Positions 12,578 through 34,253 of a stretch of DNA of 64,000 bases are shown here, one piece after another. The stretch covers positions 18,905-82,904 of the forward strand of contig JBEKLF010000008.1 of assembly GCA_050010335.1 (NCBI GenBank). The letters are read 5' to 3'. This stretch comes from Terriglobia bacterium (lineage in GTDB: Bacteria; Acidobacteriota; Terriglobia; UBA7540). Within the stretch, counting starts at the first letter, position 1; every line of letters begins with the position of its first letter. A program made the translations under genes and the position numbers. The notes under the pieces were generated by a model. That model was not told where the DNA came from. It worked only from the letters and a program-made list of their open reading frames with translations, and did no database searches.

Positions 12578-13483
12578 ATGTCACTACTGGCGGTTGGTTC
12601 AATTGCCTTTGATTCAATTCTCACCCCATACGGCAAGGCGGAGGAAATCCTCGGGGGCTCAGCGACGTTTTTTTCCGTCACCGCAAGCTGGTTCACTTCG
12701 GTTTCCGTGGTGGCGGTGGTCGGCGAAGACTTTGGGGAGCAACACTTCCGGGTTTTCCGCGAACGCTCCATCGACACAAGGGGCGTAGAACAGGTCCCCG
12801 GCCGGACCTTCCGCTGGAAGGGCGAATATACCGGTGACATGGATCAGGCCCGCACGCTCGACACGCAACTCAACGTGTTCGAAAGCTTCGTCCCCAAGAT
12901 TCCTGCCGCCTACCTCGACAGCCAGTTTCTTTTTCTCGGCAACATCGTCCCGACGTTGCAGCTTAGCGTTCGGCGCGCGCTTCCCAATCTTCGCGCCACC
13001 GCTCTCGACACCATGAATTACTGGATCCACGGCATGCCGGAAGAATTGGCCAAGGTTCTGGCGACGGTGGAAATCCTGCTGATTAACGAAGGGGAAGCGC
13101 GGATGCTTTCCAAGCAAGGTAATTTGAAGAAGGCCGCCGGAATCATTCAGAAGCTCGGCCCGCGCGTGGTGGTGGTCAAGCGAGGCGAGCATGGCGCCAC
13201 GGTTTTTGGCCCGAAGTCGATATTCACGGTTCCAGCTTTCCCTCTGGACGAGGTGTTCGATCCCACCGGTGCGGGCGACACCTTTGCCGGTGGGTTCATG
13301 GGTCATCTGGCGCGTACCGGTGATCTGTCGGATGCCAACCTGCGCCGCGCTGCTGTGTATGGATCGGTCATGGGAAGTTTTGCGGTGGAGGAATTCGGTG
13401 TGGGCCGCCTTCTGCGCTTGACGCCGGCCGAAATTGAATCGCGTTACCGCGAAATCAAGAACATGACACATTTTGATGCATGA
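12578..13483 (+). CDS. PfkB-family carbohydrate/nucleoside kinase
   Basis: N-terminal GSIAFD and C-terminal DPTGAGDTFAGGF signature. Confidence 0.8.
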   Translation: MSLLAVGSIAFDSILTPYGKAEEILGGSATFFSVTASWFTSVSVVAVVGEDFGEQHFRVFRERSIDTRGVEQVPGRTFRWKGEYTGDMDQARTLDTQLNVFESFVPKIPAAYLDSQFLFLGNIVPTLQLSVRRALPNLRATALDTMNYWIHGMPEELAKVLATVEILLINEGEARMLSKQGNLKKAAGIIQKLGPRVVVVKRGEHGATVFGPKSIFTVPAFPLDEVFDPTGAGDTFAGGFMGHLARTGDLSDANLRRAAVYGSVMGSFAVEEFGVGRLLRLTPAEIESRYREIKNMTHFDA

Positions 13484-22545: not shown

Positions 22546-22713
22546 AGGAGTGATGGAAAATGGCAGTCGCGGCCTCTCTTTACGCGGCCTTTACTTAATG
22601 CGACTTACGTTATCCCGCTTCGCGCGATGCGCCATTCACGCGTCGCGGCAGGCTTGTCCACGTGGCGCCAAATCTCCAATATGAAATCGATTGCTCCGAA
22701 ATTCCGACCAGGT

Positions 22714-22756
22714 ACGAAGATTTTCGTTGACAATACGAATCCCTTCGTAGTATGAA
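22714..22756 (+). promoter_or_regulatory. blaI promoter with two operator-like dyads
   Basis: ACGAAgattTTCGT 22714-22727. TTGACA 22727-22732. TACGAAtcccTTCGTA 22734-22749. TATGAA 22751-22756. ATG at 22763 with no SD. Confidence 0.5.
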
Positions 22757-22762
22757 TAGCGC

Positions 22763-23152
22763 ATGACAAAATCAAGTGTTGCAAAACCCACCGCCGGCGA
22801 GCTCGAGATTCTCCGCATTTTATGGGAACAAGGGCCCTCCACGGTGCGTGCTGTGCATGATGCCTTGCTCAGGGAAAAAGACGTGGGATATACCACGGTG
22901 CTGAAGCTGATGCAGATCATGACGGCCAAGGGCACGGTGCGCCGCAACCAGGAGCAGCGGGCGCACGTCTACGAAGCCTGCCAGCCCGCCGAAAAGACCA
23001 AGCGCGCACTGGCCGGAGATGTGCTCCAACGCGTGTTTCAGGGATCGGCAAGCCAGCTCATGATGCACGCGCTCGAAGGACGACGAACTTCACGGGAAGA
23101 GCTGGAGAAACTGCGGCATTTGTTGGACAACTACGAAAAGGGACTGCGATGA
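22763..23152 (+). CDS. blaI: BlaI/MecI/CopY family transcriptional repressor
   Basis: 129 aa winged helix: ELEILRILWEQGPSTVRAVHDAL and YTTVLKLMQIMTAKG. Confidence 0.85.
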   Translation: MTKSSVAKPTAGELEILRILWEQGPSTVRAVHDALLREKDVGYTTVLKLMQIMTAKGTVRRNQEQRAHVYEACQPAEKTKRALAGDVLQRVFQGSASQLMMHALEGRRTSREELEKLRHLLDNYEKGLR

Positions 23153-25260
23153 CACACTTCGGGCTATCTCCGGACGTGACTCGGCCGATATGCTGGGCGT
23201 TGCTGCACTTCCTCTGGCAAGGGCTGGCGCTCGCCCTGCTGCTTTCCGTGGCACTCGCCCTTGTGCGCCGTGCGGCGGTGCGCTATGCGTTGGGCTTGGC
23301 CACCCTGGTCCTGATGGTGGCAGCGCCCGTCGCCACATTCCTGATGCTCCGGCATCCGGTTACTGCCGGCGGGGCACGCGCCATCACTGCGTTGGCCGAG
23401 ATGCCAAGGGTCCGCCCCACACCGCCCGCCGCGGGTGCGCGGAGAGATAACATCAATACCGTCGCCGCGCCGCGCAGTGAGATCCCGGCGCTTCCCGAAG
23501 GGTCGGAGGTGTGGCTGCTTGAATTCTGGCTGGCCGGTATTGTTGTCCTCAGCGTGCGTGCGCTCGGTGGACTCTGCCTGCTTGAGCGTATACGGCGGCG
23601 CGAGACGAACACTGTAAGTACGGAACTGGAGGCCATGGCCCACGCGCTGGAGCGCCGGCTGGGCCTGCGCCGAGCCCTGCGGTATTGCCAGTGCCGCAAT
23701 CTGGATGCGCCCGCCGTCATCGGGTGGCTGCGCCCCGTCGTGCTCCTGCCGGTCTCCGCCTTGACGGGCTTGTCGCCCGAACAACTGGGAGCGGTCATCG
23801 CCCACGAGCTGGCCCATATCCGGCGGCACGACGCCTTGGTGAACCTCTTTCAGACCGGAGTTGAAACCCTGCTGTTTTACCACCCCGCCGTCTGGTGGGT
23901 GAATGCGCAAATACGCGCCGAGCGCGAGAACTGCTGCGACGATGTAGCGGTTTCTGTCTGTGGCGGCGTTCCGGACTACGCCCGTGCGCTGATGCTGATG
24001 GAGGAATGGCGCCGGGCGCCGCACCTGGCGATGGCGGCCAATGGCAGTCGGCTTCGCTCCCGCGTGCTACGGCTCATGGGACTCGAAATTCATCATAGCG
24101 GCGCTCGGAGCATGGGTTTGGCGGCCGCCTCGCTGTGTCTCGCACTCGTGGTCCTGGCCGGAACGGGACTCATGGGCACGGCGCGGGGCCTCTTCGATCC
24201 CACCGGCGGCATTTCGCCGGTCGAGACGGGGATGATTCCGGTCAGCATGCCTTCGGCCCGCGGACCCGTTGCGTCCCCGCCAAGCTCTGCCTCCCCCGAG
24301 TCTCTGCTTGGGATGATGGGGAATGTGCGTGCTCTGCGGGCGGCACGGGCGGCTCGCGCGCTCGAAACCGCGGTGGCATCTGCGCTGAGCCTGCCGGGCT
24401 TGGCTGAGGCCAGGCCGGAAAACGCCGAGGAAAAGGCGGGTCCCGCCACCGGAGACTCTGCTGGACCGCAGGAAGCTGCTCCGGCGGGGAAGGAATCCTT
24501 CATCGACGGACTCAGTTCGGTCGGCTTCAAGGACCTCGACGCGGACCAACTGATCAGCCTCAAGGTGCAGCACGTAACGCCGGAATACATCCGCCAAATT
24601 CACGCGGCAGGGCTGACCCCAACGGTTGATGAGCTGATTGGCATGAAAGTGCAGGGTGTGACTCCCGAATACATCAGCGCCATGCGAGCGCACGGCTTAA
24701 AGCCCACCGTGGACGACCTGATCGCGCTGAAAGTGCAGGGCCTAACACCGGAGTACCTCACCGCCATGCACGCCGCCGGCGTCGATTTAACCGCCGATGC
24801 GGCCATCGCGATGAAAGTCCAGGGTGTGACGTCGGAATACATCCATGATTTGCGTGCCGAAGGAGTGGAGCCCAAGCCCGATGAGTTGATTGCTCTCAAG
24901 GTGCAGGATGTGACGCCGGGATACGTCCGCGACATACACGCCGCGGGGCTCAAGCCCACGGCTGACGATCTGATCGCCATGAGAGTGCAGGGCGTGACGC
25001 CGGAATACATCCGCGATATGCACACCGCCGGTCTCACCCCGACGACGGACCAGTTCATCGCTTTCCGGACGCAGGGCATCACACCGGAATTCGTGCGGGC
25101 CATGCAGGCAGAGGGCCTCGGAAAGCTCACTACAGACGACTACATTGAGGCCAAGGTAATGGGCATCACGCCTGAGTTCATTAAAGAGGTTCGAAGCCAC
25201 GGCGTTCAGGGCCTGACTCTGGACAAGTTGATAGGGTTGAAGGAAGCAGGCGTGTTCTAA
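23149..25260 (+). CDS. BlaR1-like M56 peptidase signal transducer with C-terminal 28-aa repeat array
   Basis: HELAHIRRHD zinc motif, 4 or more TM helices, an Ala/Pro-rich linker, then 8.5 repeats of D-x-LI-x-KVQGVTPEYI-x-x-M-x-A-x-GL-x-PT. Confidence 0.85.
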   Translation: MTHFGLSPDVTRPICWALLHFLWQGLALALLLSVALALVRRAAVRYALGLATLVLMVAAPVATFLMLRHPVTAGGARAITALAEMPRVRPTPPAAGARRDNINTVAAPRSEIPALPEGSEVWLLEFWLAGIVVLSVRALGGLCLLERIRRRETNTVSTELEAMAHALERRLGLRRALRYCQCRNLDAPAVIGWLRPVVLLPVSALTGLSPEQLGAVIAHELAHIRRHDALVNLFQTGVETLLFYHPAVWWVNAQIRAERENCCDDVAVSVCGGVPDYARALMLMEEWRRAPHLAMAANGSRLRSRVLRLMGLEIHHSGARSMGLAAASLCLALVVLAGTGLMGTARGLFDPTGGISPVETGMIPVSMPSARGPVASPPSSASPESLLGMMGNVRALRAARAARALETAVASALSLPGLAEARPENAEEKAGPATGDSAGPQEAAPAGKESFIDGLSSVGFKDLDADQLISLKVQHVTPEYIRQIHAAGLTPTVDELIGMKVQGVTPEYISAMRAHGLKPTVDDLIALKVQGLTPEYLTAMHAAGVDLTADAAIAMKVQGVTSEYIHDLRAEGVEPKPDELIALKVQDVTPGYVRDIHAAGLKPTADDLIAMRVQGVTPEYIRDMHTAGLTPTTDQFIAFRTQGITPEFVRAMQAEGLGKLTTDDYIEAKVMGITPEFIKEVRSHGVQGLTLDKLIGLKEAGVF
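24544..25257 (+). repeat. In-frame 84-bp tandem repeats (8.5 units) encoding the BlaR1 tail
   Basis: Units DQLISLKVQHVTPEYIRQIHAAGLTPTV, DELIGMKVQGVTPEYISAMRAHGLKPTV and so on, ending in the truncated unit DKLIGLKEAGVF. Confidence 0.85.
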
Positions 25261-25304
25261 CCCGCATTGCTCACCAGATCGTTGATGCGGATGCATCCGG
25301 GTTT

Positions 25305-25506
25305 GAGCCCCAACGGGGCGAACTAACAAAGCCCAGGCCAAAGGCCTGGGTTTGCAGAAGCAGGAGCGATGGAGCCCTGAAGGGGCGCGCCACGCTCGAC
25401 GCGACAGACTGTAGTTCGCCCTTACAGGGCTGGACGTTCAGGGTTGAGGGTCATCTCTAAACCCAGGCCGTTGGCCTGGGCTTTGTGAGTTCGCCCCGTT
25501 GGGGCT
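25305..25506. repeat. MITE/REP-like element with ~48-bp inverted arms
   Basis: Arm 25305-25353 is nearly the reverse complement of 25459-25506, with 2-3 mismatches. Each arm contains the CCCAGGCC-N-GGCCTGGG and GCCCC-N3-GGGGC mini-palindromes. Confidence 0.75.
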
Positions 25507-25592
25507 GAAGGCACCGGACATACTGCAGCATTGGGCTGTTCTCGTGAGAAATCCGGGCTGAGCACATCAACGGAATTGAGGAGGAGAAGGCA

Positions 25593-26717
25593 ATGAGCAC
25601 ACGAATGGCACGGAATCTGGGCATATTGGCTCTGACCGTAATCGCGCTCGGGGCGATTACGACGTTGGGCCTCGACCCGCAGAGCGGCGACTGGACGCTT
25701 AGGAAATCTGACGTCCAAGGCAAAGTACACTTCTCCCTGATCCGCGACAGCGTGGGAGGCGGGAACTTCCAATCGAGCTCGGATTGGCCACTCGACCAGT
25801 TCCAGGGCTTGGACGCTGCTCCCAGCGCCCGCCACAACGTGAAGTTCACCGTTGCGCGGGAGGCGGGGCGGTTCGAATGCGAAGGTTTCCTGGAAAACGG
25901 CGAAGGGGCCGGCCTGTTTCACTTTCTGCCCAATCCGCAATTTGTCGAGCAAATGAAAGCCCTGGGGTTCGGAGGCATCGACGGCGACAAACTTATGGCG
26001 GCGGCCATTCACGACGTAACGGTTGAATTTGCCCGTGAAATGCAGGCTGAGCACATCACCGGGCTCGATACCGACAAACTCATCGCCTTTCGTATCTTTG
26101 GGGTAACGCGCCAGTTCATCGAGGGCCTGCGGTCGTCTGGGCTCAACGTGACCGACAGCGACAAACTTGTGGCCTTCCGCATTCACGGGGTGACGCCGGA
26201 GATGGTTCGCACGCTGCACCAGGCCGGTTACACCCCGGACGAAGACCAACTGATTGCGATGCGCATCCACGGCGCCACCCCGGAGTGGATTGCGGCGCTC
26301 GCAAAAGTGGGCTACCAGCATATTGATCTGGATCAGCTCATCGCCTTTCGAATTCACGGCGTCAGTCCGGAATTTATCGGCAAGCTGGAAGAACTCGGGT
26401 ATAAGCATCTGGAGGGGGATCAACTCACCGCAATGCGGATTCACGGCGCCACGACGGAGTGGATCGAGGCGCTGGGAAGAGTGGGCTACGATCACATTGA
26501 GCCGGACCAGCTCATTGCTTTTCGCATTCACGGCGTGAGCCCGGAATTCATCGGGAAAATTCAAGAGCTCGGTTATAAGCACCCAGACGCAGATCAGCTC
26601 ATCGCGATGCGGATTCACGGCGTTACCCCTGAATACATCGCCAAACTGCAATCCCAGGGGATGCACAATCTCAGCGCTGACCAGTTAATTAATTTGCGGA
26701 TTCACGGTATCGACTAG
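25593..26717 (+). CDS. Secreted protein: N-terminal beta domain + 8.5 BlaR1-tail-type repeats
   Basis: Signal peptide, RBS GGAGGAG, and repeats DQLIAFRIHGVSPEFIGKLEELGYKH / DQLIAMRIHGATPEWIAALAKVGYQH from 25986 to the stop. Confidence 0.7.
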   Translation: MSTRMARNLGILALTVIALGAITTLGLDPQSGDWTLRKSDVQGKVHFSLIRDSVGGGNFQSSSDWPLDQFQGLDAAPSARHNVKFTVAREAGRFECEGFLENGEGAGLFHFLPNPQFVEQMKALGFGGIDGDKLMAAAIHDVTVEFAREMQAEHITGLDTDKLIAFRIFGVTRQFIEGLRSSGLNVTDSDKLVAFRIHGVTPEMVRTLHQAGYTPDEDQLIAMRIHGATPEWIAALAKVGYQHIDLDQLIAFRIHGVSPEFIGKLEELGYKHLEGDQLTAMRIHGATTEWIEALGRVGYDHIEPDQLIAFRIHGVSPEFIGKIQELGYKHPDADQLIAMRIHGVTPEYIAKLQSQGMHNLSADQLINLRIHGID

Positions 26718-26736
26718 CGCTGAGCACAAAAAAGGA

Positions 26737-26870
26737 ATTCACCACGGAGGCACAGAGGTCACGGAGAGAAGACCCAAAGGAGAACATCAAGTCAATCATC
26801 CGCTGAACGGTAATCCCTACCCCCGCAAACAGGAGTACTTCTCCGTGACCTCTGTGCCTCCGTGGTGAAT
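26737..26870. repeat. Perfect 31-bp inverted repeat (long hairpin) between convergent genes
   Basis: ATTCACCACGGAGGCACAGAGGTCACGGAGA 26737-26767 has its exact reverse complement at 26840-26870. Confidence 0.85.
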
Positions 26871-26877
26871 CTCCGAC

Positions 26878-27456
26878 TCAGAACCTATCCTCCCGAACCC
26901 ACCTCGCTACCGCGTCCGCTACGGAGAATTGCCGCTGAGGGTCAGCCTCGAACCGGCGGCCGAGGCTGTATGCGTTCACCTCCAACGGGATGCCATCATA
27001 ACCGCCGCCCGAAAGGAACCCCCGGACGTACAATTCCGAGAATCGCGGAATCCCAAGCTGGCGGTATTGCTCGACGTGGACGAGTTCATGAAACAGGAGG
27101 CCGCTCGAAAAGGGGACGTGCGATACGATGACATCATGGAACGTAATCGCCGTGATTTGTGAGAGGTCACGCAAGCCCGAAAAGCCCATACCCACCAGCA
27201 TCCAACGGAACGGCGGATTTTCGAGCCGGGCGCCATCCAACTCCAGGAGCCGTGCTGCATCAAGGGTCTGTGTTGTGAAGAAGCCAGACATTGCGGCCAT
27301 CTGCGCTGGAGTAAGCGGAATCGCCTGCGGAGAGAACCTCTCCCGTTGTGCATTGATGTAATGGGAAACGAGACGGGGCACCCGTAGGGCTCGTGCAAAG
27401 CCGAGTTGCAGCGAAGTCATCCGATTCACGGGTGTCCACTCCCGCGGCGCGTTCAC
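26878..27456 (-). CDS. Hypothetical HExxH protein, DUF4157-like
   Basis: AITFHDVIVSHVPFSSGLLFHELVHVEQY resembles the DUF4157 metallopeptidase-like motif. GTG start 27456; ATG alternative 27420. Confidence 0.5.
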   Translation of the reverse strand: MNAPREWTPVNRMTSLQLGFARALRVPRLVSHYINAQRERFSPQAIPLTPAQMAAMSGFFTTQTLDAARLLELDGARLENPPFRWMLVGMGFSGLRDLSQITAITFHDVIVSHVPFSSGLLFHELVHVEQYRQLGIPRFSELYVRGFLSGGGYDGIPLEVNAYSLGRRFEADPQRQFSVADAVARWVREDRF

Positions 27457-27509
27457 TTAAAGAGCCGCGAACGGACATTCGCCCGGTTTAGAGCGTGGTA
27501 CAGCATCTC

Positions 27510-27707
27510 GCCGACATCCACTCGCCGCACTCTGCCCATGCCTGAATCCTACCGCTTCTTGGCCCGAAAGAAAAGGGTACCTGACCCCCTTCCTCCCCTG
27601 ACCCCCTTCCTCCCCGTGGTAAATCATGCCGCCAACATCAACTCGCCGTACTCTGCCCATGACTGCATTTTATCGCATCGTTTCCGGATGAAAAAGGTAC
27701 CTAACCC
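27510..27707. repeat. Two ~78-nt imperfect direct repeats, each ending in AAAAGGGTACCTGAC-like motif
   Basis: 27510-27588 versus 27631-27707, about three quarters identical by eye. GGTACC at 27576 and 27696. Confidence 0.7.
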
Positions 27708-27910
27708 CTTTTCCCACAGGTGGAGAAACCGGAAACGTGGATATTCCGTCCGCCCCGCTTATTTTGAGAATGGTGGTACTGTAGAGAAGCCCATCCAACT
27801 GCAACCATCTCCTTCGTCCGTGGTAGAATCTGCCCATAAATTGTTCTTAGTCCTCGACAGGCGTGACGGCGGGATGCTGTGGGAAAAAGCGAAGTCTTAG
27901 GAGCGTGTGC

Positions 27911-29440
27911 ATGGAGGTCGTTGAACGTGCTCGGCTAAATGTCGGAATGGACGTCTGGACGAAAATCGTGTGGCGGCTCGGATGGAATCCCACCCCGACA
28001 TATATTTTACTCGTCTGCATGGCTCTTTTGGGGTGGGTGCTTTTGCGGCATCCGGCCGGCCTGCTGCTAGGTTTGTTAGCGCTGGTGCCTCGGTGGAAAG
28101 CTATAAGTCTCATCAACAGGAACGGCCAAGGTTACCTCGACCAAGCCAAGTTGCAGGTCAAAGAGCAGGGCGCTAGGAGGCTGGGGGTTCACCTGGATAC
28201 TGCACTTTGCAACGTGTCGTCCACCGGACGCGGCACGCGGCCCTTCGGTGCGTCGTGGAATCCAGAGTTTGATATTTCAGTGGTCTATATCGATAACCAG
28301 TTTTTCGCGGTTTACCAAGCAGCAATCTTTAGTCTTCACGATTTCACTGTTCAGTTCCCCCAGCAAGGTGATGAAATTTACTACCGCCACGTTAGTGCTG
28401 TGAACTACCACCCGCCGCATGTCGAAGTCACACTCTCTGACGGGAAAACGATAAAGCGGTTCTCAGTTGGCTCAGAGGGCGGCAGCGCCGTGGTCTCTGC
28501 GCTGCGGGCGAAGTTAAGAGCACCCGTTGCCTCCGCAATGCCTGTTCCCGAACGAGGCGCTTTGAAAAACGGTACCCTTGGAATGCTCGCTCATCATGAG
28601 GACGATACCTCGGTGGGTCCCGGTGGCGAAGTTGCGCAGTCCGATAGTACGAATGAGGAGCGATATTGTTATCTTCGGCTCAGTAAGCTGCAGCAACTTT
28701 TGGCCGATCCTTCAGTCCTTGACGTGCTCGTCGAGCAGCTACGGGTTCCCGGAGAAACAGCCGTGCACAGGCAGCTAACGCAGCAACAAAAAATGGAAGC
28801 TATCGAGGCGGAGATTGACCACTTCCGGCGAACCCCAACGTCCGTCTGGTATGGAGTGCCATCATTTGAAGTCCTTGCGGCGTCGCTGTGGCGAGCCCAG
28901 GATCACGAGGATTGCATCAATAGGAGACTTCTTACGAAGAGGTTGGTCCGCCGGGGATGGTTCTGCGGTGTCTCAGACGAGGCCGACCTAATGATTCCTG
29001 TGGCGAGGTGGCTTAAGTCACTTGGCAATGACCCCTACATGGAGATTCCGATGGGGTCTGCAAGAGTTGATGTTCTTGGGTGCAGGAAAAGAGGCCTTTC
29101 AGGCTCGGGGAGTCTTACGGCTGTTGAATTGAAGAACGATTACCAGCAGTTCAAACGAGCACTCAATCAAGTTAGCACCTTTGCGGAATACGCTAACCTC
29201 GTATACATCGCGTGCACCCCTGCCTTCGCGGCAGATTACCTTGACCGGAACGAAAATTCAGTCAAACACTGGGATGCGACCGCCTTTGAGCGAAAAATTA
29301 CTGGGGGTGGGATTGGCCTGCTCATTGTCGAAAGAGATCAAGTTTTTGAAGTGGTCAAGCCGATTGAGCGTACTCCCAACAGCACTAACTTTTCGAGAGT
29401 GGTGAGTGCGCTATCCGCTGTGAATCTCATTGAGTGCTAA
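27911..29440 (+). CDS. Membrane protein with C-terminal PD-(D/E)xK nuclease-like domain
   Basis: SD TAGGAG 27897. Two N-terminal TM helices and a beta-rich middle. C-terminal E..RVDVLG(D 29069)..AVELK(E 29126, K 29132)..Y..YIACTP, an MmcB-like pattern. Confidence 0.6.
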   Translation: MEVVERARLNVGMDVWTKIVWRLGWNPTPTYILLVCMALLGWVLLRHPAGLLLGLLALVPRWKAISLINRNGQGYLDQAKLQVKEQGARRLGVHLDTALCNVSSTGRGTRPFGASWNPEFDISVVYIDNQFFAVYQAAIFSLHDFTVQFPQQGDEIYYRHVSAVNYHPPHVEVTLSDGKTIKRFSVGSEGGSAVVSALRAKLRAPVASAMPVPERGALKNGTLGMLAHHEDDTSVGPGGEVAQSDSTNEERYCYLRLSKLQQLLADPSVLDVLVEQLRVPGETAVHRQLTQQQKMEAIEAEIDHFRRTPTSVWYGVPSFEVLAASLWRAQDHEDCINRRLLTKRLVRRGWFCGVSDEADLMIPVARWLKSLGNDPYMEIPMGSARVDVLGCRKRGLSGSGSLTAVELKNDYQQFKRALNQVSTFAEYANLVYIACTPAFAADYLDRNENSVKHWDATAFERKITGGGIGLLIVERDQVFEVVKPIERTPNSTNFSRVVSALSAVNLIEC

Positions 29441-29448
29441 GGCAGCGA

Positions 29449-29596
29449 GAAGGGGACGGGGACATCCACCGTCCCTGAGGTTCGAAGAACGGCGGAGCCT
29501 GGGCAGTAGGTTCACGCTACTTGCTTGCTCCGCCATCGGCATGATGCCAAGTGGAGAAACCGGGAAGCAACGTGTCCCTGTCCCCCGGGTGGGTCC
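29449..29596. repeat. A-type structured repeat, copy 1
   Basis: Begins 8 nt after the stop. GGGGACGGGGACA at the 5' end and TGTCCCTGTCCCC at the 3' end. About 150 nt, homologous to 30919-31070. Confidence 0.8.
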
Positions 29597-29695
29597 GAGG
29601 GGAAAAACTCACGGTCAGAAATGCGCTGTGCGCGGCTACTCGCTTCTAAACGTTTGGTTTCTGAACAAACCTTCCGAAAGAACGCGGTTGTACTC

Positions 29696-30883
29696 ATGCG
29701 GAGCGTTGTAGGCAGCAACATCGGCCGGAAAATCCTCGTCCCGATCCTCAGGGCGCTCGATGTTGCGGGCGGACTCGCTATCACGACAAGAATAGGCGCG
29801 CGGCTCGTCGGCCTGATCATCCCGAAGTCCCGACCCATCCTCTGTGCCGCCTGTTTTACGGACCATGGACTTCGAATGGACGCAGACCGGCTCGGGATCC
29901 CGCACGCGCTGCCATGCCCTAATTGCGGGGCGCAGGGGACAAAAAAGCTCACCCTCTATCTGGTCAGAGTCCTTGCATCGCAGTTCTTCGTCAGGGGATC
30001 GGTTCGTCGTTTCTCTTACGGATCAGCTCCGCTTGTGCAATTTAACGAGGCGCGGTTTCAGCGTGGCGACTACGTTGGACCGAACTGGATTCAAAAGGAT
30101 GTAGCGCTCATCAGCGAGAAAGGAAGAATCGGTCTTTTTCATTATGGTCCCCATCTTTGGATGTTCGGGGAAATCGAGCCACTGAAAGCACTGCAGGACT
30201 CGCTTGAACGGGACGCCATCGTCGACCGGATTCTCAAGGAATACCCCGAACGCATCTTGCCACAGGGCGAAATTATCTACCGATTGCGCGCAAATCCGGA
30301 AAACCCTGTCGCAAGAGGCGAATACGATAGTCCACCTGACAAGGTGTTGGGGTGCGGACGGCTGGACTCGCCGGGGCAGCCCGTCCTCTACTGCTCCCAG
30401 GACATTGAGGGTTGTGTCCACGAGTGTAGGGTCACCGTGGAGGACGAATTGTATTTAGCCTCCCTGAAACCGACACGAAACCTCAAGCTCCTCGACCTTA
30501 CGGTCCTACTTCACGAAGAACACGTCACAGAGTTCGAAAGCCTCGACCTGGCGGTACACATGCTGTTCTTTGCAGCTGATCATTCCTACGAGATTACGCG
30601 TGCAATTGCGATTGCGGCGAGCAAGGCGGGCTTTGACGGGTTACTCTATCCGTCCTATTTCAGCCAGGTTCGGTCAGGAGCAATGCCTTTCGAAACGGCC
30701 TATGGAATTTCCGTACGGCAGTTCCCTGATGCCGCCAAATACGCCACATCGACGATATTTTCGAACGTCGCCTTATTCGGGCGGCCGATTAAAGAAGGTA
30801 TCCTCGCGGTGACCTGCATCGATCGGCTTGTCATTCATAAGGTGCACTATGATTTCCGGTTCGGCCCGGCAACTCCTCATTGA
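29696..30883 (+). CDS. RES-domain protein with N-terminal Zn-ribbon extension
   Basis: CAAC..CPNC. GCGRLDSPGQPVLYCSQDIEGCVHE (R and E of RES) and GFDGLLYPSYFS (S). Start uncertain: ATG 29696 or 29621. The ORF upstream of these overlaps the repeat. Confidence 0.7.
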   Translation: MRSVVGSNIGRKILVPILRALDVAGGLAITTRIGARLVGLIIPKSRPILCAACFTDHGLRMDADRLGIPHALPCPNCGAQGTKKLTLYLVRVLASQFFVRGSVRRFSYGSAPLVQFNEARFQRGDYVGPNWIQKDVALISEKGRIGLFHYGPHLWMFGEIEPLKALQDSLERDAIVDRILKEYPERILPQGEIIYRLRANPENPVARGEYDSPPDKVLGCGRLDSPGQPVLYCSQDIEGCVHECRVTVEDELYLASLKPTRNLKLLDLTVLLHEEHVTEFESLDLAVHMLFFAADHSYEITRAIAIAASKAGFDGLLYPSYFSQVRSGAMPFETAYGISVRQFPDAAKYATSTIFSNVALFGRPIKEGILAVTCIDRLVIHKVHYDFRFGPATPH

Positions 30884-30918
30884 TAGTCCCGGCACCGGCA
30901 TTCACGCCTGCGTTGTTC

Positions 30919-31070
30919 GGAGGGGACGGACAGACACCACCGTCCCTGTTGTTCGAAGAGCGGCGGAGCCTGGACAGCAGGTTCACGCCACTTGCTCGCT
31001 CCGCCATCGGCATGATGCGAAGTGGAGAAACCCGGAAACGTGGTTTGTCCCCGTCCCCCGGTTCCCGTCC
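30919..31070. repeat. A-type structured repeat, copy 2
   Basis: Begins 35 nt after the RES stop. Aligns with 29449-29596 along its whole length. Confidence 0.8.
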
Positions 31071-31168
31071 GCGCTACCTGTGTGCCTGCCACGGGTTGAG
31101 CGGTTTCTCTTGAATGATGGGATTCGGGAGTAGATGATTGAAGCATCATCCACTGGAGGTAGGCGAAT

Positions 31169-32017
31169 ATGTTTGAGGTAAAGGGTGAATCCTTTCTCGC
31201 CATTGGTGAAATGTTCGGCGAGATGATGCAAATCTATAGGGACTCAACTACGCCCAAGACTTATGAGGTTAAGTTTAAATCTTCGCATTTCGGAAAGATA
31301 CATCCCGTCGAGGTACTTCCTAAAGATGCAGTTAGCATAGATGGGCCTATGCCTGATTCGTATCGACAAAGTCTTACAGAGTGGTCCGATACAATGGTTG
31401 GCAATTGCCACAGCCTTCGCCTTTCACAGAGTTTTAGACAGGCAAAGAGAATAATTGAGTGCCTGAGCACACAGCAGGTGTCAATTAGGCAGTTCTTGGA
31501 AATGCAGAGGAACCTCTATGACCGCATCGTTGACGAACTTCAGGAGAGGGTTACCATTCAAATTGAATCGCCGAGAGCTAATTTCTACAATGACCCTGCC
31601 GCGTTCGGTCAAAACGTATTCAATGCGTTCCCGTCTGCACATGAGGATATTGCGGAGGCTGCTAAATGCTTGGCATTGGATAGGGCAACGGCTTGCGTTA
31701 TGCACCTATGCAGGGCTGTCGAGGTTGGACTGAAAGTACTGGCGGTCAAAGAATTAAATCTACCTGTGCGGAATAACTGGGGGAGACAGCTTGACGACAT
31801 CCAGAAGGAGCTGACGGCACGGTACAGGGCATCCGGCACGCGAACGGCGGACGAGGCTTTTTACTCGGAGGTCGCAGCGCAAATAGGGCACATCAAGACA
31901 GCATGGAGAAATCCGACGATGCACGTCGAGAGAACCTATACTTATGAGCGTGCGGAGGAAATCTTCGTCGCGGTCAGGTCTTTTATGAACCATTTGGCGC
32001 GGCGTATCAAAGAATAA
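31169..32017 (+). CDS. HEPN-like protein (DUF4145/Abi-like C-terminal domain)
   Basis: SD GGAGG 31154. C-terminal helical domain with DIAEAAKCLALDRATACVMHLCRAVE and WRNPTMH (Rx4H; R 31907, H 31922). Confidence 0.6.
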   Translation: MFEVKGESFLAIGEMFGEMMQIYRDSTTPKTYEVKFKSSHFGKIHPVEVLPKDAVSIDGPMPDSYRQSLTEWSDTMVGNCHSLRLSQSFRQAKRIIECLSTQQVSIRQFLEMQRNLYDRIVDELQERVTIQIESPRANFYNDPAAFGQNVFNAFPSAHEDIAEAAKCLALDRATACVMHLCRAVEVGLKVLAVKELNLPVRNNWGRQLDDIQKELTARYRASGTRTADEAFYSEVAAQIGHIKTAWRNPTMHVERTYTYERAEEIFVAVRSFMNHLARRIKE

Positions 32018-32024
32018 CGATCTT

Positions 32025-32130
32025 AGGGGGACGGAGACAGACACTACCGTCGCCCAGTAGAATCGCTATTGCTAAACACTGCGTCTCAGACGGCTGGCGA
32101 TCACTCCGGCGCCTTGCGGTCACGTGCGTC
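32025..32130. repeat. B-type structured repeat, copy 1
   Basis: Begins 7 nt after the HEPN stop. Shares the GGGGACGG-N-CCGTC hairpin module with the A type. The rest is homologous to 33679-33786. Confidence 0.7.
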
Positions 32131-32518
32131 CGTTCGTTATGCAAACTCGGCGCGCCATAGGCCCGGATGGCTCGTCACGAACCCCGCCGCGTCTACTTCC
32201 AGGGTCCGCCGCACTCGGTTCCGTTCAAACGCCGTCTGCGCTCCGCGTCCACAGATAGGTCTATCTCCCGACCGCCCATCACGCCCCTTACTTGGGCTGA
32301 GTCGTCGACCACGCGGCTTTACGCCGCTCCCACAGGATAGTTGCTGGCGTCATAGAATCCGCGATAATCAACCCATATGAAGCAACGGCTATACCCTGGA
32401 AACGACTATACCTAGCTACCTGACTTCGCGGCGCAGCCGGGATCTGATCGGCAATACGATTGGGAGTCCCCGGTGATCGGCACGCCGGAGGAGCTGTTTT
32501 AGGAGGGTTTCGGTCGTC

Positions 32519-32698
32519 ATGGGTTACATTGTGGATGACGTGCGGCGCCTACGTGAGGAACAGGCCGCCAGGCACGGCTTTGACATGATTGCCATTCTTG
32601 GCGCGGCAAAAAAGCGACAACGTCGGTCGACGCGAACAGTGGTTTCCCTCGTTCCAAAGAAGACCCTGCGCACATCGGCACCGCAAATCTCGGCGTGA
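32519..32698 (+). CDS. Small (59 aa) hypothetical protein, antitoxin-like
   Basis: AGGAGGG 32501-32507 lies 11 nt before the ATG. MGYIVDDVRRLREEQAARHGFDMIAILGAAKKRQRRSTRTVVSLVPKK. Below the 60-aa ORF-track cutoff. Confidence 0.4.
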   Translation: MGYIVDDVRRLREEQAARHGFDMIAILGAAKKRQRRSTRTVVSLVPKKTLRTSAPQISA

Positions 32699-32919
32699 TT
32701 TCCGCGTGCCGACGAGCGCGGCAGTGATCGCCTCCTGTCCCGTTCCAGAGCCCTTAAAATCTCAGCAGGATGCCGTAGCGGCGAGTTTACCTCGCCATTT
32801 GCCGGCGTGATGACGGAAAAGCGCGGGGGTGAAAAGCCGCGGACCTACACGAACAGGTCCGCGCTACGGATGCTTTCCGCCAGGGACATTTTGTAGCCTC
32901 TATCTCTGGTAGATTTCTC

Positions 32920-32947
32920 TTGACTTTCTAGTATTCGATGCTATAAT
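32920..32947 (+). promoter_or_regulatory. Near-consensus sigma70 promoter TTGACT-16-TATAAT
   Basis: TTGACT 32920-32925 and TATAAT 32942-32947. No ORF follows; it reads into the word tract and four-box array. Confidence 0.45.
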
Positions 32948-32976
32948 AACTGGGTGTTACTGTAGAGTGAAGTTAG

Positions 32977-33040
32977 GATTGCCGATTTTTGATTGCCGAT
33001 TGCCGATTGCCGATTTTCGATTGCTGATTTGGGATTTGCA
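32977..33040. repeat. Periodic word tract (GATTGCC/GATTTT)n
   Basis: gattgccgatttttgattgccgattgccgattgccgattttcgattgctgatttgggatttgca. Confidence 0.8.
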
Positions 33041-33137
33041 TCAAGGCGCCGACGTTTTTGACATGGTGGAGGGCAACACGATCCCTGTCGCTAGCGCGAG
33101 CCGGAGGACAAGGAGCCAACCTAAACGGTGCTCCGTC

Positions 33138-33522
33138 TTCCACGATGTACTAGAAATTAAATGAGTTAGCTGTGTAGCCCGGAAGGCTTTCAGGAATTCA
33201 AGTCATTGAATGTAAACAAGTTAGTAAATTCCAGGCGGCGACGCGGCGAAAAAACGGGGGGAAAAATGAAGGGATGTTCCACGATGTTATTGAAAACAAA
33301 TAGAGAAAATATGTCCGAAAGTAAGCTTTCCACGATGTTGATGAAAATAAAGGACCTATAGAGCGCTTTCCACGATGTTGATGATAATTAAAGTAGTTAG
33401 CCAAGATTACGGATGGCGCTTGACGAGTTCGGATGACAATCAGAGGCTAGAGCCGAAGGGATGAAATAGAAAAAGGATTCTTTTTTTTTACGTTCGAAGC
33501 CGGAATGTCTATGAAAACAAAC
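33138..33522 (+). repeat. Four-box direct repeat array (TTCCACGATGTTGATGAAAATAAA-like) plus degenerate fifth box, locus 2
   Basis: Boxes at 33138, 33277, 33328 and 33368, spaced 139/51/40 nt. Partial box at 33500-33522. Confidence 0.7.
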
Positions 33523-33550
33523 AAATTTATGACACAATGCCCGGAAACAA

Positions 33551-33590
33551 GTCGGACATTTATGTCTTAGATTCGGACATTTGCGTCTAA
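33551..33590 (+). repeat. Tandem 20-mer x2 (TCGGACATTTnnGTCTnA)
   Basis: gtcggacatttatgtcttag / attcggacatttgcgtctaa. Inverted core ATGTCCGA at 33311. Confidence 0.7.
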
Positions 33591-33678
33591 CCGACACCAT
33601 TTTTGCAGAAAATCGCCGCTTTGTGACGACAATTTGCCAGATCATTCTCATGCCGCTTCGCTCACACGGTCTTTTGTA

Positions 33679-33786
33679 AGAGGGGACGGGACAGACACCA
33701 ACGTCACCCTGTAGAGGATTCGGTATTACTCAACACAGCGTCCAAGAGGGCTTGCGATCAATCCGGCACCTTGCGGTGACGTGCTT
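33679..33786. repeat. B-type structured repeat, copy 2
   Basis: AGGGGACGGGACAGACACCAACGTCACCC 5' module. ACGTCACC (33701) is complementary to GGTGACGT (33775). Confidence 0.7.
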
Positions 33787-33818
33787 CAGATTCTCGGGCT
33801 TATGGGGGCAGTTTGAAT

Positions 33819-34253
33819 TTACGTTCCGGTACTTCCGAATCCTCCGGCGTCGCGTTCCGTGGACGATACCGAATCGGCTTCGGTGAACTCTGCCTCAACG
33901 CGCTTAACGATTCGCACTTGGGCAATGCGATCTCCCGCATTAATTCTAAAAGAGGATTTACCCAGGTTGATAAGCACAACTTTCAACTCGCCGCGGTAGC
34001 CGGGATCCATGACCCCGGCCAGCGTGCAGATTCCGCGCAACGCCAAACCCGAGCGATCCTCGACGAGCGCGCCGAAATTCGGAGGAAACTCGAAGGCGAG
34101 GCCGGTGCGCACAGCCTTGATTTCGCCGGGCGCCAACTCTTCCGCCTCCAGCGCGGTTACGTCGGCAGCCAGATCTCCGTAAGGGCCGCGGTGCGCATAG
34201 TTCGGCATAATTGCCGCGGGGTGAAGCTTTGCGACCTTTACGTTGATAGTCAT
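33819..34253 (-). CDS. dut: dUTP diphosphatase
   Basis: 144 aa. AADVTA, GALVEDRSGLALRG, VMDPGYRGEL and GGFGSTG motifs. Confidence 0.9.
   Translation of the reverse strand: MTINVKVAKLHPAAIMPNYAHRGPYGDLAADVTALEAEELAPGEIKAVRTGLAFEFPPNFGALVEDRSGLALRGICTLAGVMDPGYRGELKVVLINLGKSSFRINAGDRIAQVRIVKRVEAEFTEADSVSSTERDAGGFGSTGT

Follow-up and report, generated by a model that had tools for sequence, protein, structure and literature searches.

A toxin-gene island of a peat Terriglobia bacterium whose spacers were probably colonised by low-copy hairpin-bearing repeats

How does a regular array of unrelated genes, each closed by a member of one repeat family, come into being? The question is raised by a 64,000-nt stretch of contig JBEKLF010000008.1 from a peat Terriglobia bacterium (the window, meaning the whole stretch analysed), in which genes for a PD-(D/E)xK nuclease-like protein (gene 1), a RES-domain protein and a HEPN-like protein stand in one orientation and are followed by structured repeats that we call A and B. 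The original prediction likened this arrangement to integron or dif-module cassette arrays. We hold, with moderate confidence, that the locus is an accessory toxin/defence island at a recombination hotspot, and that its spacers were colonised by a low-copy family resembling repetitive extragenic palindromic (REP) elements and miniature inverted-repeat transposable elements (MITEs), probably related to a TIRYT-type Y1 transposon. On this reading, A and B are not cassette boundaries of a site-specific recombinase. The features on which the argument turns are these:

27911-29440, + strand: gene 1, 509 aa, with two transmembrane helices, a PH-like domain, a helical linker and a C-terminal PD-(D/E)xK nuclease-like domain
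29452-29585, + strand: repeat A1, 134 nt, with terminal inverted repeats GGGGACGGGGACA / TGTCCCTGTCCCC and a 5' hairpin module (fold z = -4.8)
29696-30883, + strand: long RES-domain protein, 395 aa, with an N-terminal CxxC...CPxC region
30922-31058, + strand: repeat A2, 137 nt, its right end adjoining a half GTAG-type REP (repeat search, pattern and nhmmer)
31169-32017, + strand: HEPN-like protein, 282 aa, with a variable helical N-terminal half and a conserved C-terminal domain containing AWRNPTMH
32027-32134, + strand: repeat B1, about 108 nt, with only the 5' hairpin module in common with A
32135-33680, + strand: fourth interval, a non-coding mosaic with an AT-rich tail
33681-33791, + strand: repeat B2, about 110 nt, with a one-mismatch variant of the module, ending 27 nt from the stop codon of the convergent dut
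33819-34253, - strand: dut, the conserved right-hand border, with synteny to all relatives lost at most 15 nt from its stop codon
22546-33818 (11.3 kb), no strand: lineage-specific segment from the acyltransferase gene to dut, delimited by comparison with loci L049 and L051

The repeats are a real family, and within the window they are confined to the island. The pattern GGGGACGG-N5-16-CCGTC matches three times in the window (29452, 30922 and 32027), always on the + strand, where 0.01 matches are expected by chance, and no further copies of A or B were found in the window outside the island by a mismatch search of its whole length, self-BLAST and nhmmer. The gene-plus-repeat pattern described earlier is therefore genuine, with three co-oriented genes trailed by A1, A2 or B1, and the stop-to-repeat distances given for it agree with ours, namely 8-11 nt for A1, 35-38 nt for A2 and 7-9 nt for B1. 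A1 and A2 are 86-91% identical over 134-142 nt and B1 and B2 80-82% over about 107 nt, while the part common to A and B is the 5' hairpin module alone, a GC-rich stem of 7-8 bp with bulges and a loop of 8-13 nt. Repeat A is non-coding and is delimited by 13-nt terminal inverted repeats with the ends GGGGACGGGGACA / TGTCCCNGTCCCC, which corrects its length from the roughly 150 nt first estimated to 134-137 nt. Compared with shuffled sequences, it folds with z = -4.8 and -2.7, mainly due to the inverted ends.

Copies in related contigs show what kind of unit this is. In L026 a full A copy matches at 87-88% identity over its entire length, both inverted repeats included down to their outermost bases, and has unrelated flanks, which marks A as a discrete MITE-like unit; it adjoins an IS66-family transposase and is solitary, without a credible upstream gene. 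Identity among A1, A2 and the L026 copy is much the same in each comparison (86-88%), therefore A1 and A2 do not stem from a recent local duplication. The module alone occurs in L027, 20 nt past the end of a DUF6338 gene and with a PIN toxin next to it, a B copy lies about 34 nt past an 867-aa gene in L047/L048, and a 62-nt A core stands directly past the stop of a 270-aa membrane-protein gene (DUF3040-like) in L043 (E = 2.6e-9). Since these copies follow unrelated genes, the repeat family has no fixed association with toxin genes. No direct repeat that would represent a target-site duplication is common to the flanks of A1, A2 and the L026 copy; HUH/Y1 elements produce none. Published REPs lie mostly between co-oriented or convergent open reading frames (ORFs), less than 20 bp from the upstream ORF and with a varying gap to the following one (PMC3733652). 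The position of A and B behind stop codons matches this pattern, so no cassette mechanism is needed to account for it.

A candidate for the parent element is suggested by the left edge of the toxin-gene region, which holds:

27456-27539, - strand: N-terminal fragment (copy 1) of a Y1 (RAYT/TIRYT-type) transposase, 28 codons, MGRVRRVDVGEMLYHALNRANVRSRLFK*
27494-27711, - strand: two tandem repeats of about 121 nt, each with a G-rich GGGGTCAGG/GGGGTTAGG motif, a leader and the first 15-28 Y1 codons (repeat search; 78% over 98 nt in self-BLAST)
27715-27757, + strand: possible A-type right terminus, tentatively 'A0', 71% identical over 35 nt to the right end of A2 including GTGGAGAAACC-GGAAACGTGG

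The two Y1 N-terminal fragments in 27456-27660 are the 28-codon one and a 15-residue copy (fragment sequence MGRVRRVDVGEMLYHALNRAN...). Against rba2408 of Rhodopirellula, taken from the TIRYT/RAYT sequences in additional file 5 of PMC3733652, the fragment reached a score of 69 (z = 12.3, with none of 2000 shuffles as good), and its site was the sole match of full-length rba2408 in a tblastn search of 366 kb (E = 0.006). Pfam, NCBIfam and the PDB returned no match for the fragment, which with 28 aa is too short for profiles. A0 lies about 85 nt upstream of fragment copy 2 (minus strand) and also upstream of gene 1. TIRYT genes, several of them in Acidobacteria, are flanked by inverted repeats with GGGG[AT][CG]A[CG] (PMC3733652; PMC6006769); G-rich motifs GGGGTCAG stand upstream of the Y1 fragments, and the right end of A1, read as its reverse complement GGGGACAG, fits the published consensus. 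A and B are thus plausible, if not proven, non-autonomous relatives of a Y1 element.

The domain calls for the three genes all held, and the relatives of two of them indicate whether genes and repeats travel together. Gene 1, preceded by the Shine-Dalgarno sequence TAGGAG at 27897, has no match in Pfam or in a sequence search of the PDB. It has 62 full-length homologues, and in an alignment of 36 sequences E378, D387, E406-x-K408 (E406-L-K408) and Q420 are invariant. Its AlphaFold model is of moderate quality (pLDDT 71.7 overall, 55-80 in the nuclease-like domain) and matches PH domains and, with the C-terminal domain, XisH (2okf), PaqCI and BamHI (probability 0.95-1.0, E-values 0.006-0.08); weak profile matches concern sce7726_fam and the PADLOC family 'cll'. 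With D387/E406-x-K408 invariant and a predicted restriction-endonuclease-like fold, the product can be placed in the PD-(D/E)xK nuclease superfamily. Homologues with 81-87% nucleotide identity (L029-L032) occupy three unrelated neighbourhoods, the homology spans from just 5' of the start codon to 0-12 nt beyond the stop, and no A or B repeat was found 3' of these homologues (P0122-P0124; L029-L032).

Two further observations concern gene 1. In L029 (9640-10000) and L031 (2794-3154) a conserved promoter-like region and a lysine-rich small ORF of 47 aa (MPIPLLPILAAAVVGRATKKDTKKQAVSKYKRKSG...) stand ahead of its relatives; the small ORF is missing 5' of gene 1 in the window and may encode a partner or antitoxin since lost there. 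At 28173 the sequence of many population contigs (L008, L035-L039, L041) switches to the start of an insertion sequence (IS) that begins TACTACTACGTTAAGTTATTGACC... and opens an ORF starting MTESEIEKCRKRLEQFLADLLEPLGRR, where the contigs stop; part of the population thus has an interrupted gene 1.

The RES gene product matches Pfam PF08808 with E = 3.7e-14 (53.5 bits, cut-off 23.2). An exhaustive phmmer search gave 524 representative relatives, mostly of 330-370 aa and starting just ahead of the CxxC, and the 395-aa start at 29696 is preferred for this reason. Type II RES-Xre systems pair an upstream Xre/DUF2384 antitoxin gene with a short RES toxin of about 150-200 aa. No Xre/DUF2384 antitoxin ORF was found beside the RES gene among the ORFs and by Pfam, and NCBIfam Res_ParT_toxin reached 12 bits against a cut-off of 110; the missing antitoxin ORF, this score and the length of 395 aa set the gene apart from such a system. 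The protein belongs to a 'long RES' family, which has a zinc-ribbon-like domain at the N-terminus, and is not a short RES-Xre toxin.

The HEPN gene, with GGAGG at 31155, has about 300 homologues and no Pfam match, HEPN families included; a PDB sequence search was also empty. Across 44 aligned sequences R247, N248 and H252 are invariant (R247-N-P-T-M-H252; R-N-x3-H) within the conserved C-terminal domain. The confident AlphaFold model (pLDDT 87.6) is all-helical and has 2q00, 4nqf, 1ufb and 2hsb as top PDB fold matches, all of them small HEPN proteins, although the matches are weak (E 0.6-2; probability 0.77-0.92 for three and 0.41 for 4nqf). By its Rx4H motif and the all-alpha model, the 31169-32017 product can be placed in the HEPN superfamily. 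Similarity to the nearest homologue (L019, 76% nucleotide identity) is limited to the ORF in an unrelated neighbourhood, and no A or B repeats were found 3' of HEPN homologues (P0002, P0005). Elsewhere a homologue with 49% identity (L022 5290-7340) is a passenger beside an IS1595 transposase inserted between aspS and hisS, and the pair is framed by inverted ends of about 27 nt (GGTAATTATCCCTTGACAACAAGTAAG / complement).

As described earlier, the three + strand genes have their own Shine-Dalgarno sequences and no partner, sensor or antitoxin genes were seen for them. PADLOC-DB v2 assigned the three proteins to no system and gave marginal matches only ('cll' 1.8e-4, BrxC 0.011). The RES protein is predicted to target NAD+ and the HEPN protein to be an RNase, and the three products would most likely act in conflict or abortive-infection-type defence. 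The locus resembles defence/toxin islands with stand-alone RES, HEPN and PD-(D/E)xK genes in that unrelated killing-type domains are clustered in a variable, lower-GC hotspot between core genes, in its IS insertions, and in that the relative L043 has toxin-antitoxin genes (PemK) at the equivalent region; it differs in the lack of a PADLOC match and of partner, sensor or antitoxin genes, and its defence role is a predicted one. If the reading proposed here is right, three poorly annotated stand-alone families are flagged as conflict/defence candidates in soil Terriglobia, with about 60 homologues for the transmembrane-PH-PD-(D/E)xK family, about 520 representatives for the long zinc-ribbon-RES family and about 300 homologues for the Pfam-less HEPN family.

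The window sequence recurs in about 45 further contigs of the peat population, and it is part of the 84-kb JGI peat-metagenome contig Ga0187856_1000098 and present in the NCBI 'Terriglobia bacterium' metagenome-assembled genome. GC content is 0.43-0.57 over 27.5-33.8 kb versus 0.58-0.69 in the flanks, in agreement with the A+T-richness reported for some 6.3 kb. The gene order PolyA polymerase, XerC/D-like recombinase, DUF6982, response regulator, PilZ, lpxD and dut is conserved in relatives, and divergence starts directly past dut, with four gene contents in five related lineages. What comes next is a PemK/PSK toxin-antitoxin pair with other genes in L043, and DnaJ-domain, M10 peptidase and TIG genes in L045 and L047; in L049 and L051 dut is directly convergent with the acyltransferase and M61 peptidase genes (window 22508-20006). 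Because the last two join dut straight to the acyltransferase gene, window 22546-33818 is specific to this lineage. Its contents are a BlaI/BlaR1-like pair, a 374-aa repeat protein, a DUF4157-like gene and then, as its right-hand 6.3 kb, the stretch of the toxin-type genes and repeats. The predicted accessory nature of the locus is confirmed, since gene content past dut varies and is no fixed core synteny, while its extent is larger than the 27457-33800 proposed. Among the roughly 45 same-population contigs gene content does not vary cassette by cassette, the sole variant being the IS in gene 1. The only tyrosine recombinase nearby, a 306-aa XerC/D-like gene 4.3 kb off, is conserved core, syntenic in island-free relatives and not island-linked.

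Other mobile DNA has settled in the same segment, including:

32855-32867 (within 32838-32870), - strand: exact GTAG-type REP, the only one in the window
31065-31077, - strand: half GTAG-type REP, adjoining the right end of A2

Together with the IS at 28173 these mark the island as a sink for mobile DNA. The GTAG-tagged REP (GTAGCGCGGACCT-loop-AGGTCCGCG) is common to distant acidobacterial contigs (L022, L043, L047). A likeness of the A core to it (GTAGCGTGAACCT, 2 mismatches) is at chance level, with 6 found versus 1.6 expected, and was not used.

We propose that one peat Terriglobia population acquired an 11.3-kb mosaic island by insertion at the 3' end of dut, and that three separately translated stand-alone toxin/effector-type genes would have been acquired independently. 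Their spacers would then have been occupied by the low-copy hairpin/inverted-repeat elements A and B, most likely non-autonomous and related to a Y1 (HUH, RAYT/TIRYT-type) transposon; decayed 5' ends of one such element are found at the left edge of the island. The elements stand behind stops and co-oriented with the upstream gene, a site at which REP-type elements commonly insert or are tolerated, and there they may double as 3' RNA stabilisers or terminators. The anatomy, the domain calls, the variability of the locus, the copies elsewhere and the Y1 fragments are shown here, and from them we infer the mobilisation by Y1, any RNA role and the defence function.

REP and REPIN elements are built on a palindrome of 20-40 bp with an unpaired GTAG (or CGTC) tag and occur in tens to hundreds of copies per genome; A and B are without a GTAG tag, have CGTC within the stem and number 4 copies in 64 kb. 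They share with REP/REPIN and RAYT/TIRYT inverted-repeat families (Di Nocera 2013, PMC3733652; Quentin 2018, PMC6006769) the short GC-rich hairpins and the lack of target duplication, the siting just past the upstream ORF, the adjacent Y1 remnants and the ends near GGGGWSAS, and A, like a REPIN, has two inverted ends around a spacer. Unlike these families, A and B are of very low copy number and locally clustered, have a loop of 8-13 nt and, in the case of B, only one recognisable end, and no intact cognate transposase was found.

MITEs are non-coding elements of 70-300 bp with terminal inverted repeats, and A agrees with this in size and ends, whereas B does not. Sharp-ended copies at unrelated loci are represented through L026, the total of known copies being few, and the missing target-site duplication is compatible with HUH/Y1 elements. 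Among bacterial MITEs, RUP, NEMIS/Correia, ERIC and Nezha are similar to A in size, terminal inverted repeats, lack of coding capacity, strong transcript fold and siting by coding regions; A differs in its few copies and in a likely Y1 (HUH) parent rather than a DDE insertion sequence.

Integron arrays and CALINs (attC, Vibrio VCRs) are alike in their promoter-poor single genes in one orientation, toxin-type cargo and an imperfect-palindrome repeat of about 110-140 nt behind each gene, and in sedentary integrons the repeats are similar to one another, as here. The locus differs from them in having no IntI and no R''/R' cores, in genes that do not travel with the repeat, and in repeats that occur singly elsewhere. 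Neither R'' (RYYYAAC) nor R' (GTTRRRY) was found at the boundaries of A or B, just as the original prediction had noted in stating that the attC signature is absent. In Xer/dif modules, pdif sites of 28 bp have two 11-bp arms around a fixed 6-bp spacer and alternate in orientation around the modules; the arms of the hairpin module are 7-8 bp, its loop is 8-13 nt and all copies have one orientation. The cassette reading as first put forward is therefore not supported, given that homologues of gene 1 and the HEPN gene lack repeats, that copies stand behind unrelated genes, and that there is neither attC nor an island-linked integrase.

Several results weigh against repeats that simply colonised the spacers. 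B does not fold significantly better than shuffled sequences (z = 0.1 to 0.9) and has no recognisable second inverted repeat. Homology of the window with L047 begins exactly at the B module, upstream of which the genes differ, and homology of gene 1 with L029 stops exactly at the first base of A1; junction-specific exchange would give the same two endpoints. The copy number is very low, with four copies in 4.3 kb versus none in the window's remaining 58 kb, unlike a freely dispersing element, and about 4 additional copies are present in some 300 kb of related DNA, nhmmer over 366 kb having added only those of L043 and L047. Exact-pattern scans gave chance matches only in 185,579 species genomes, and chance matches plus L026 and L027 only in a metagenome collection, where the source contig itself was not returned and sensitivity was thus poor. 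No full-length Y1 gene was detected by tblastn across all loci compared, nor one flanked by A-type ends, the similarity of A0 is marginal (E = 0.2 with the nhmmer A model), and the left terminal inverted repeat GGGGACGG is one position off GGGGWSAS. Viral contigs scanned with three exact patterns gave chance matches or none; all these exact scans are insensitive, which makes their negatives weak. BLAST of A and B against PLSDB plasmids gave no match.

Could the hairpin module be a working recombination site after all? In a true cassette platform a recombinase or HUH enzyme would act at the module, folded as single strand or double-stranded, and single genes would be inserted or exchanged directly 5' of it, like those of integron attC arrays. 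The iterated, singly oriented gene-plus-repeat units, the breakpoints at the B module and at A1, an element 0-38 nt past the stop codon in five of the six informative cases and a locus that is a recurrent synteny break would all suit such a platform. We nevertheless regard it as quite improbable in view of the missing RYYYAAC...GTTRRRY cores, the bulged stem with its 8-13-nt loop, a tyrosine recombinase that is core and kept in island-free relatives, homologous genes that in other genomes never occur with the repeat, the solitary L026 copy beside an IS66 transposase, and the same gene content in all population contigs. A related form of the idea is that the module marks junctions where ORF-sized genes are inserted or swapped by a single-strand (HUH/Y1-type) or other enzyme, a low-copy, integron-like gene capture built from REP/TIRYT-type parts. 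The L047 and A1 breakpoints at element edges, the rarity and clustering of the repeats and the lack of an intact parent are the reasons for which we keep a small probability, somewhat under one in ten, for this junction-specific exchange.

Selection for an RNA function, with the repeats serving as 3'-untranslated-region hairpins, by which each toxin transcript would be terminated or stabilised and kept apart from the next gene, or as 5' leaders or RNA antitoxins for the next gene (A0-gene 1, A1-RES, A2-HEPN), appears unlikely. The stability of the A fold, well beyond that of shuffles, the GC-rich 7-8-bp hairpin directly past the stop and three toxin-type genes without a protein partner speak for it, and so does the fact that A1 and A2 both end exactly 110 nt from the next start codon (29586-29695, 31059-31168). 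The two spacers are unrelated in sequence, however, and their equal length is probably a coincidence; a terminator scan was empty behind the hairpins, where no U-tract follows, B folds no better than shuffles, and there is no covariation, as the changes break pairs and are not compensatory. Moreover, a single RNA acting against three toxins of unrelated mechanism is hard to envisage, the homologous genes in other places function in the absence of the repeat, and Rfam at gathering thresholds returned nothing in the island. Type III toxin-antitoxin systems, in which a repeat RNA lies upstream of each toxin, were rejected for lack of tandem repeats, and because the toxins are unrelated to one another and the homologues have no repeat. 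That A1/A2 and B1/B2 are remnants of locally duplicated intergenic DNA, without mobility or function, would explain why all copies in the window are clustered and co-oriented, yet it is very improbable: precise-ended copies in other contigs and contexts (L026, L027, L043, L047) largely refute it, the divergence between A1 and A2 is as great as that of either from the L026 copy, and their similarity ends sharply at the inverted repeats with flanks that are not homologous.

If colonisation of an accessory island by REP/MITE-like elements is the true history, a regular array of 'gene + structured repeat' can arise from such elements settling behind stop codons in a hotspot, and arrays of this kind should not be called integron-like unless gene and site are co-mobile. 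A low-copy repeat family not described before, with a plausible link to TIRYT-type Y1 transposases, would also be added; to our knowledge, the biology of these transposases in Acidobacteria is essentially unstudied. Wider interest is confined to the minority reading, the junction-specific exchange of genes at the module.

The fourth interval, which ends at B2, contains the elements described earlier:

32519-32698: 59-codon ORF
32920-32947: near-consensus promoter, 11/12 match
32976-33033: 14-nt tandem array
33138-33394: 27-nt repeats

Over 827 nt the interval is 77% identical to L047 15358-16162, where it has a different position; two parts of the window, 32030-32289 and 32830-33644, match a region 5 kb from dut in L047/L048 with 77-78% identity, and 32670-32969 is conserved beside dut in L043. 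Conservation of an ORF-poor interval suggests a candidate small RNA or regulatory region, so far unannotated, rather than junk. Pieces of the interval recur elsewhere in relatives, and the non-coding DNA is therefore itself a mosaic of clade-specific intergenic repeats. At relaxed thresholds, a weak partial match to the Rfam group II intron model group-II-D1D4-6 at 33048-33110 (+ strand; 21.8 bits versus a gathering threshold of 49, E about 0.001-0.004) was treated as chance since it is absent from the homologous L047 region; nor did a group II domain V match accompany it in the window.

The TTGACT-N16/17-TATAAT-type promoter is also kept in L043 (10678-11034). A unit of about 24-27 nt, CTTTCCACGATGTTGATGAAAATA, occurs four times in 33138-33394 and twice at 100% identity in the unrelated L029 locus (13268-13291, 13370-13393), with a further entry in L049 (3148-3292); units of this type form a second dispersed intergenic repeat family. 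Copies of window 33470-33636 with 76-78% identity lie near the polyA-polymerase gene in L043, L045 and L047.

The left part of the lineage-specific segment is also rich in repeats. Tandem coding repeats of 84-87 nt (28-29 aa) of the type 'D.LIA.R.HGVTPE.I..L...G' at 24540-25140 and 26056-26707 make up the C-terminal half of the BlaR1-like M56 peptidase and most of the adjoining 374-aa protein. Between these two genes, a long inverted repeat (a 207-nt palindrome at 25303-25509) includes a match to the Rfam small RNA Acido-Lenti-1 at 25306-25350 (- strand; 38.2 bits, gathering threshold 37). At 26737-26870, in the gap that separates the 374-aa gene from the DUF4157-like gene, stands a perfect inverted repeat of 31 nt, ATTCACCACGGAGGCACAGAGGTCACGGAGA, with its arms 72 nt apart; both arms have 91-94% matches in L045.

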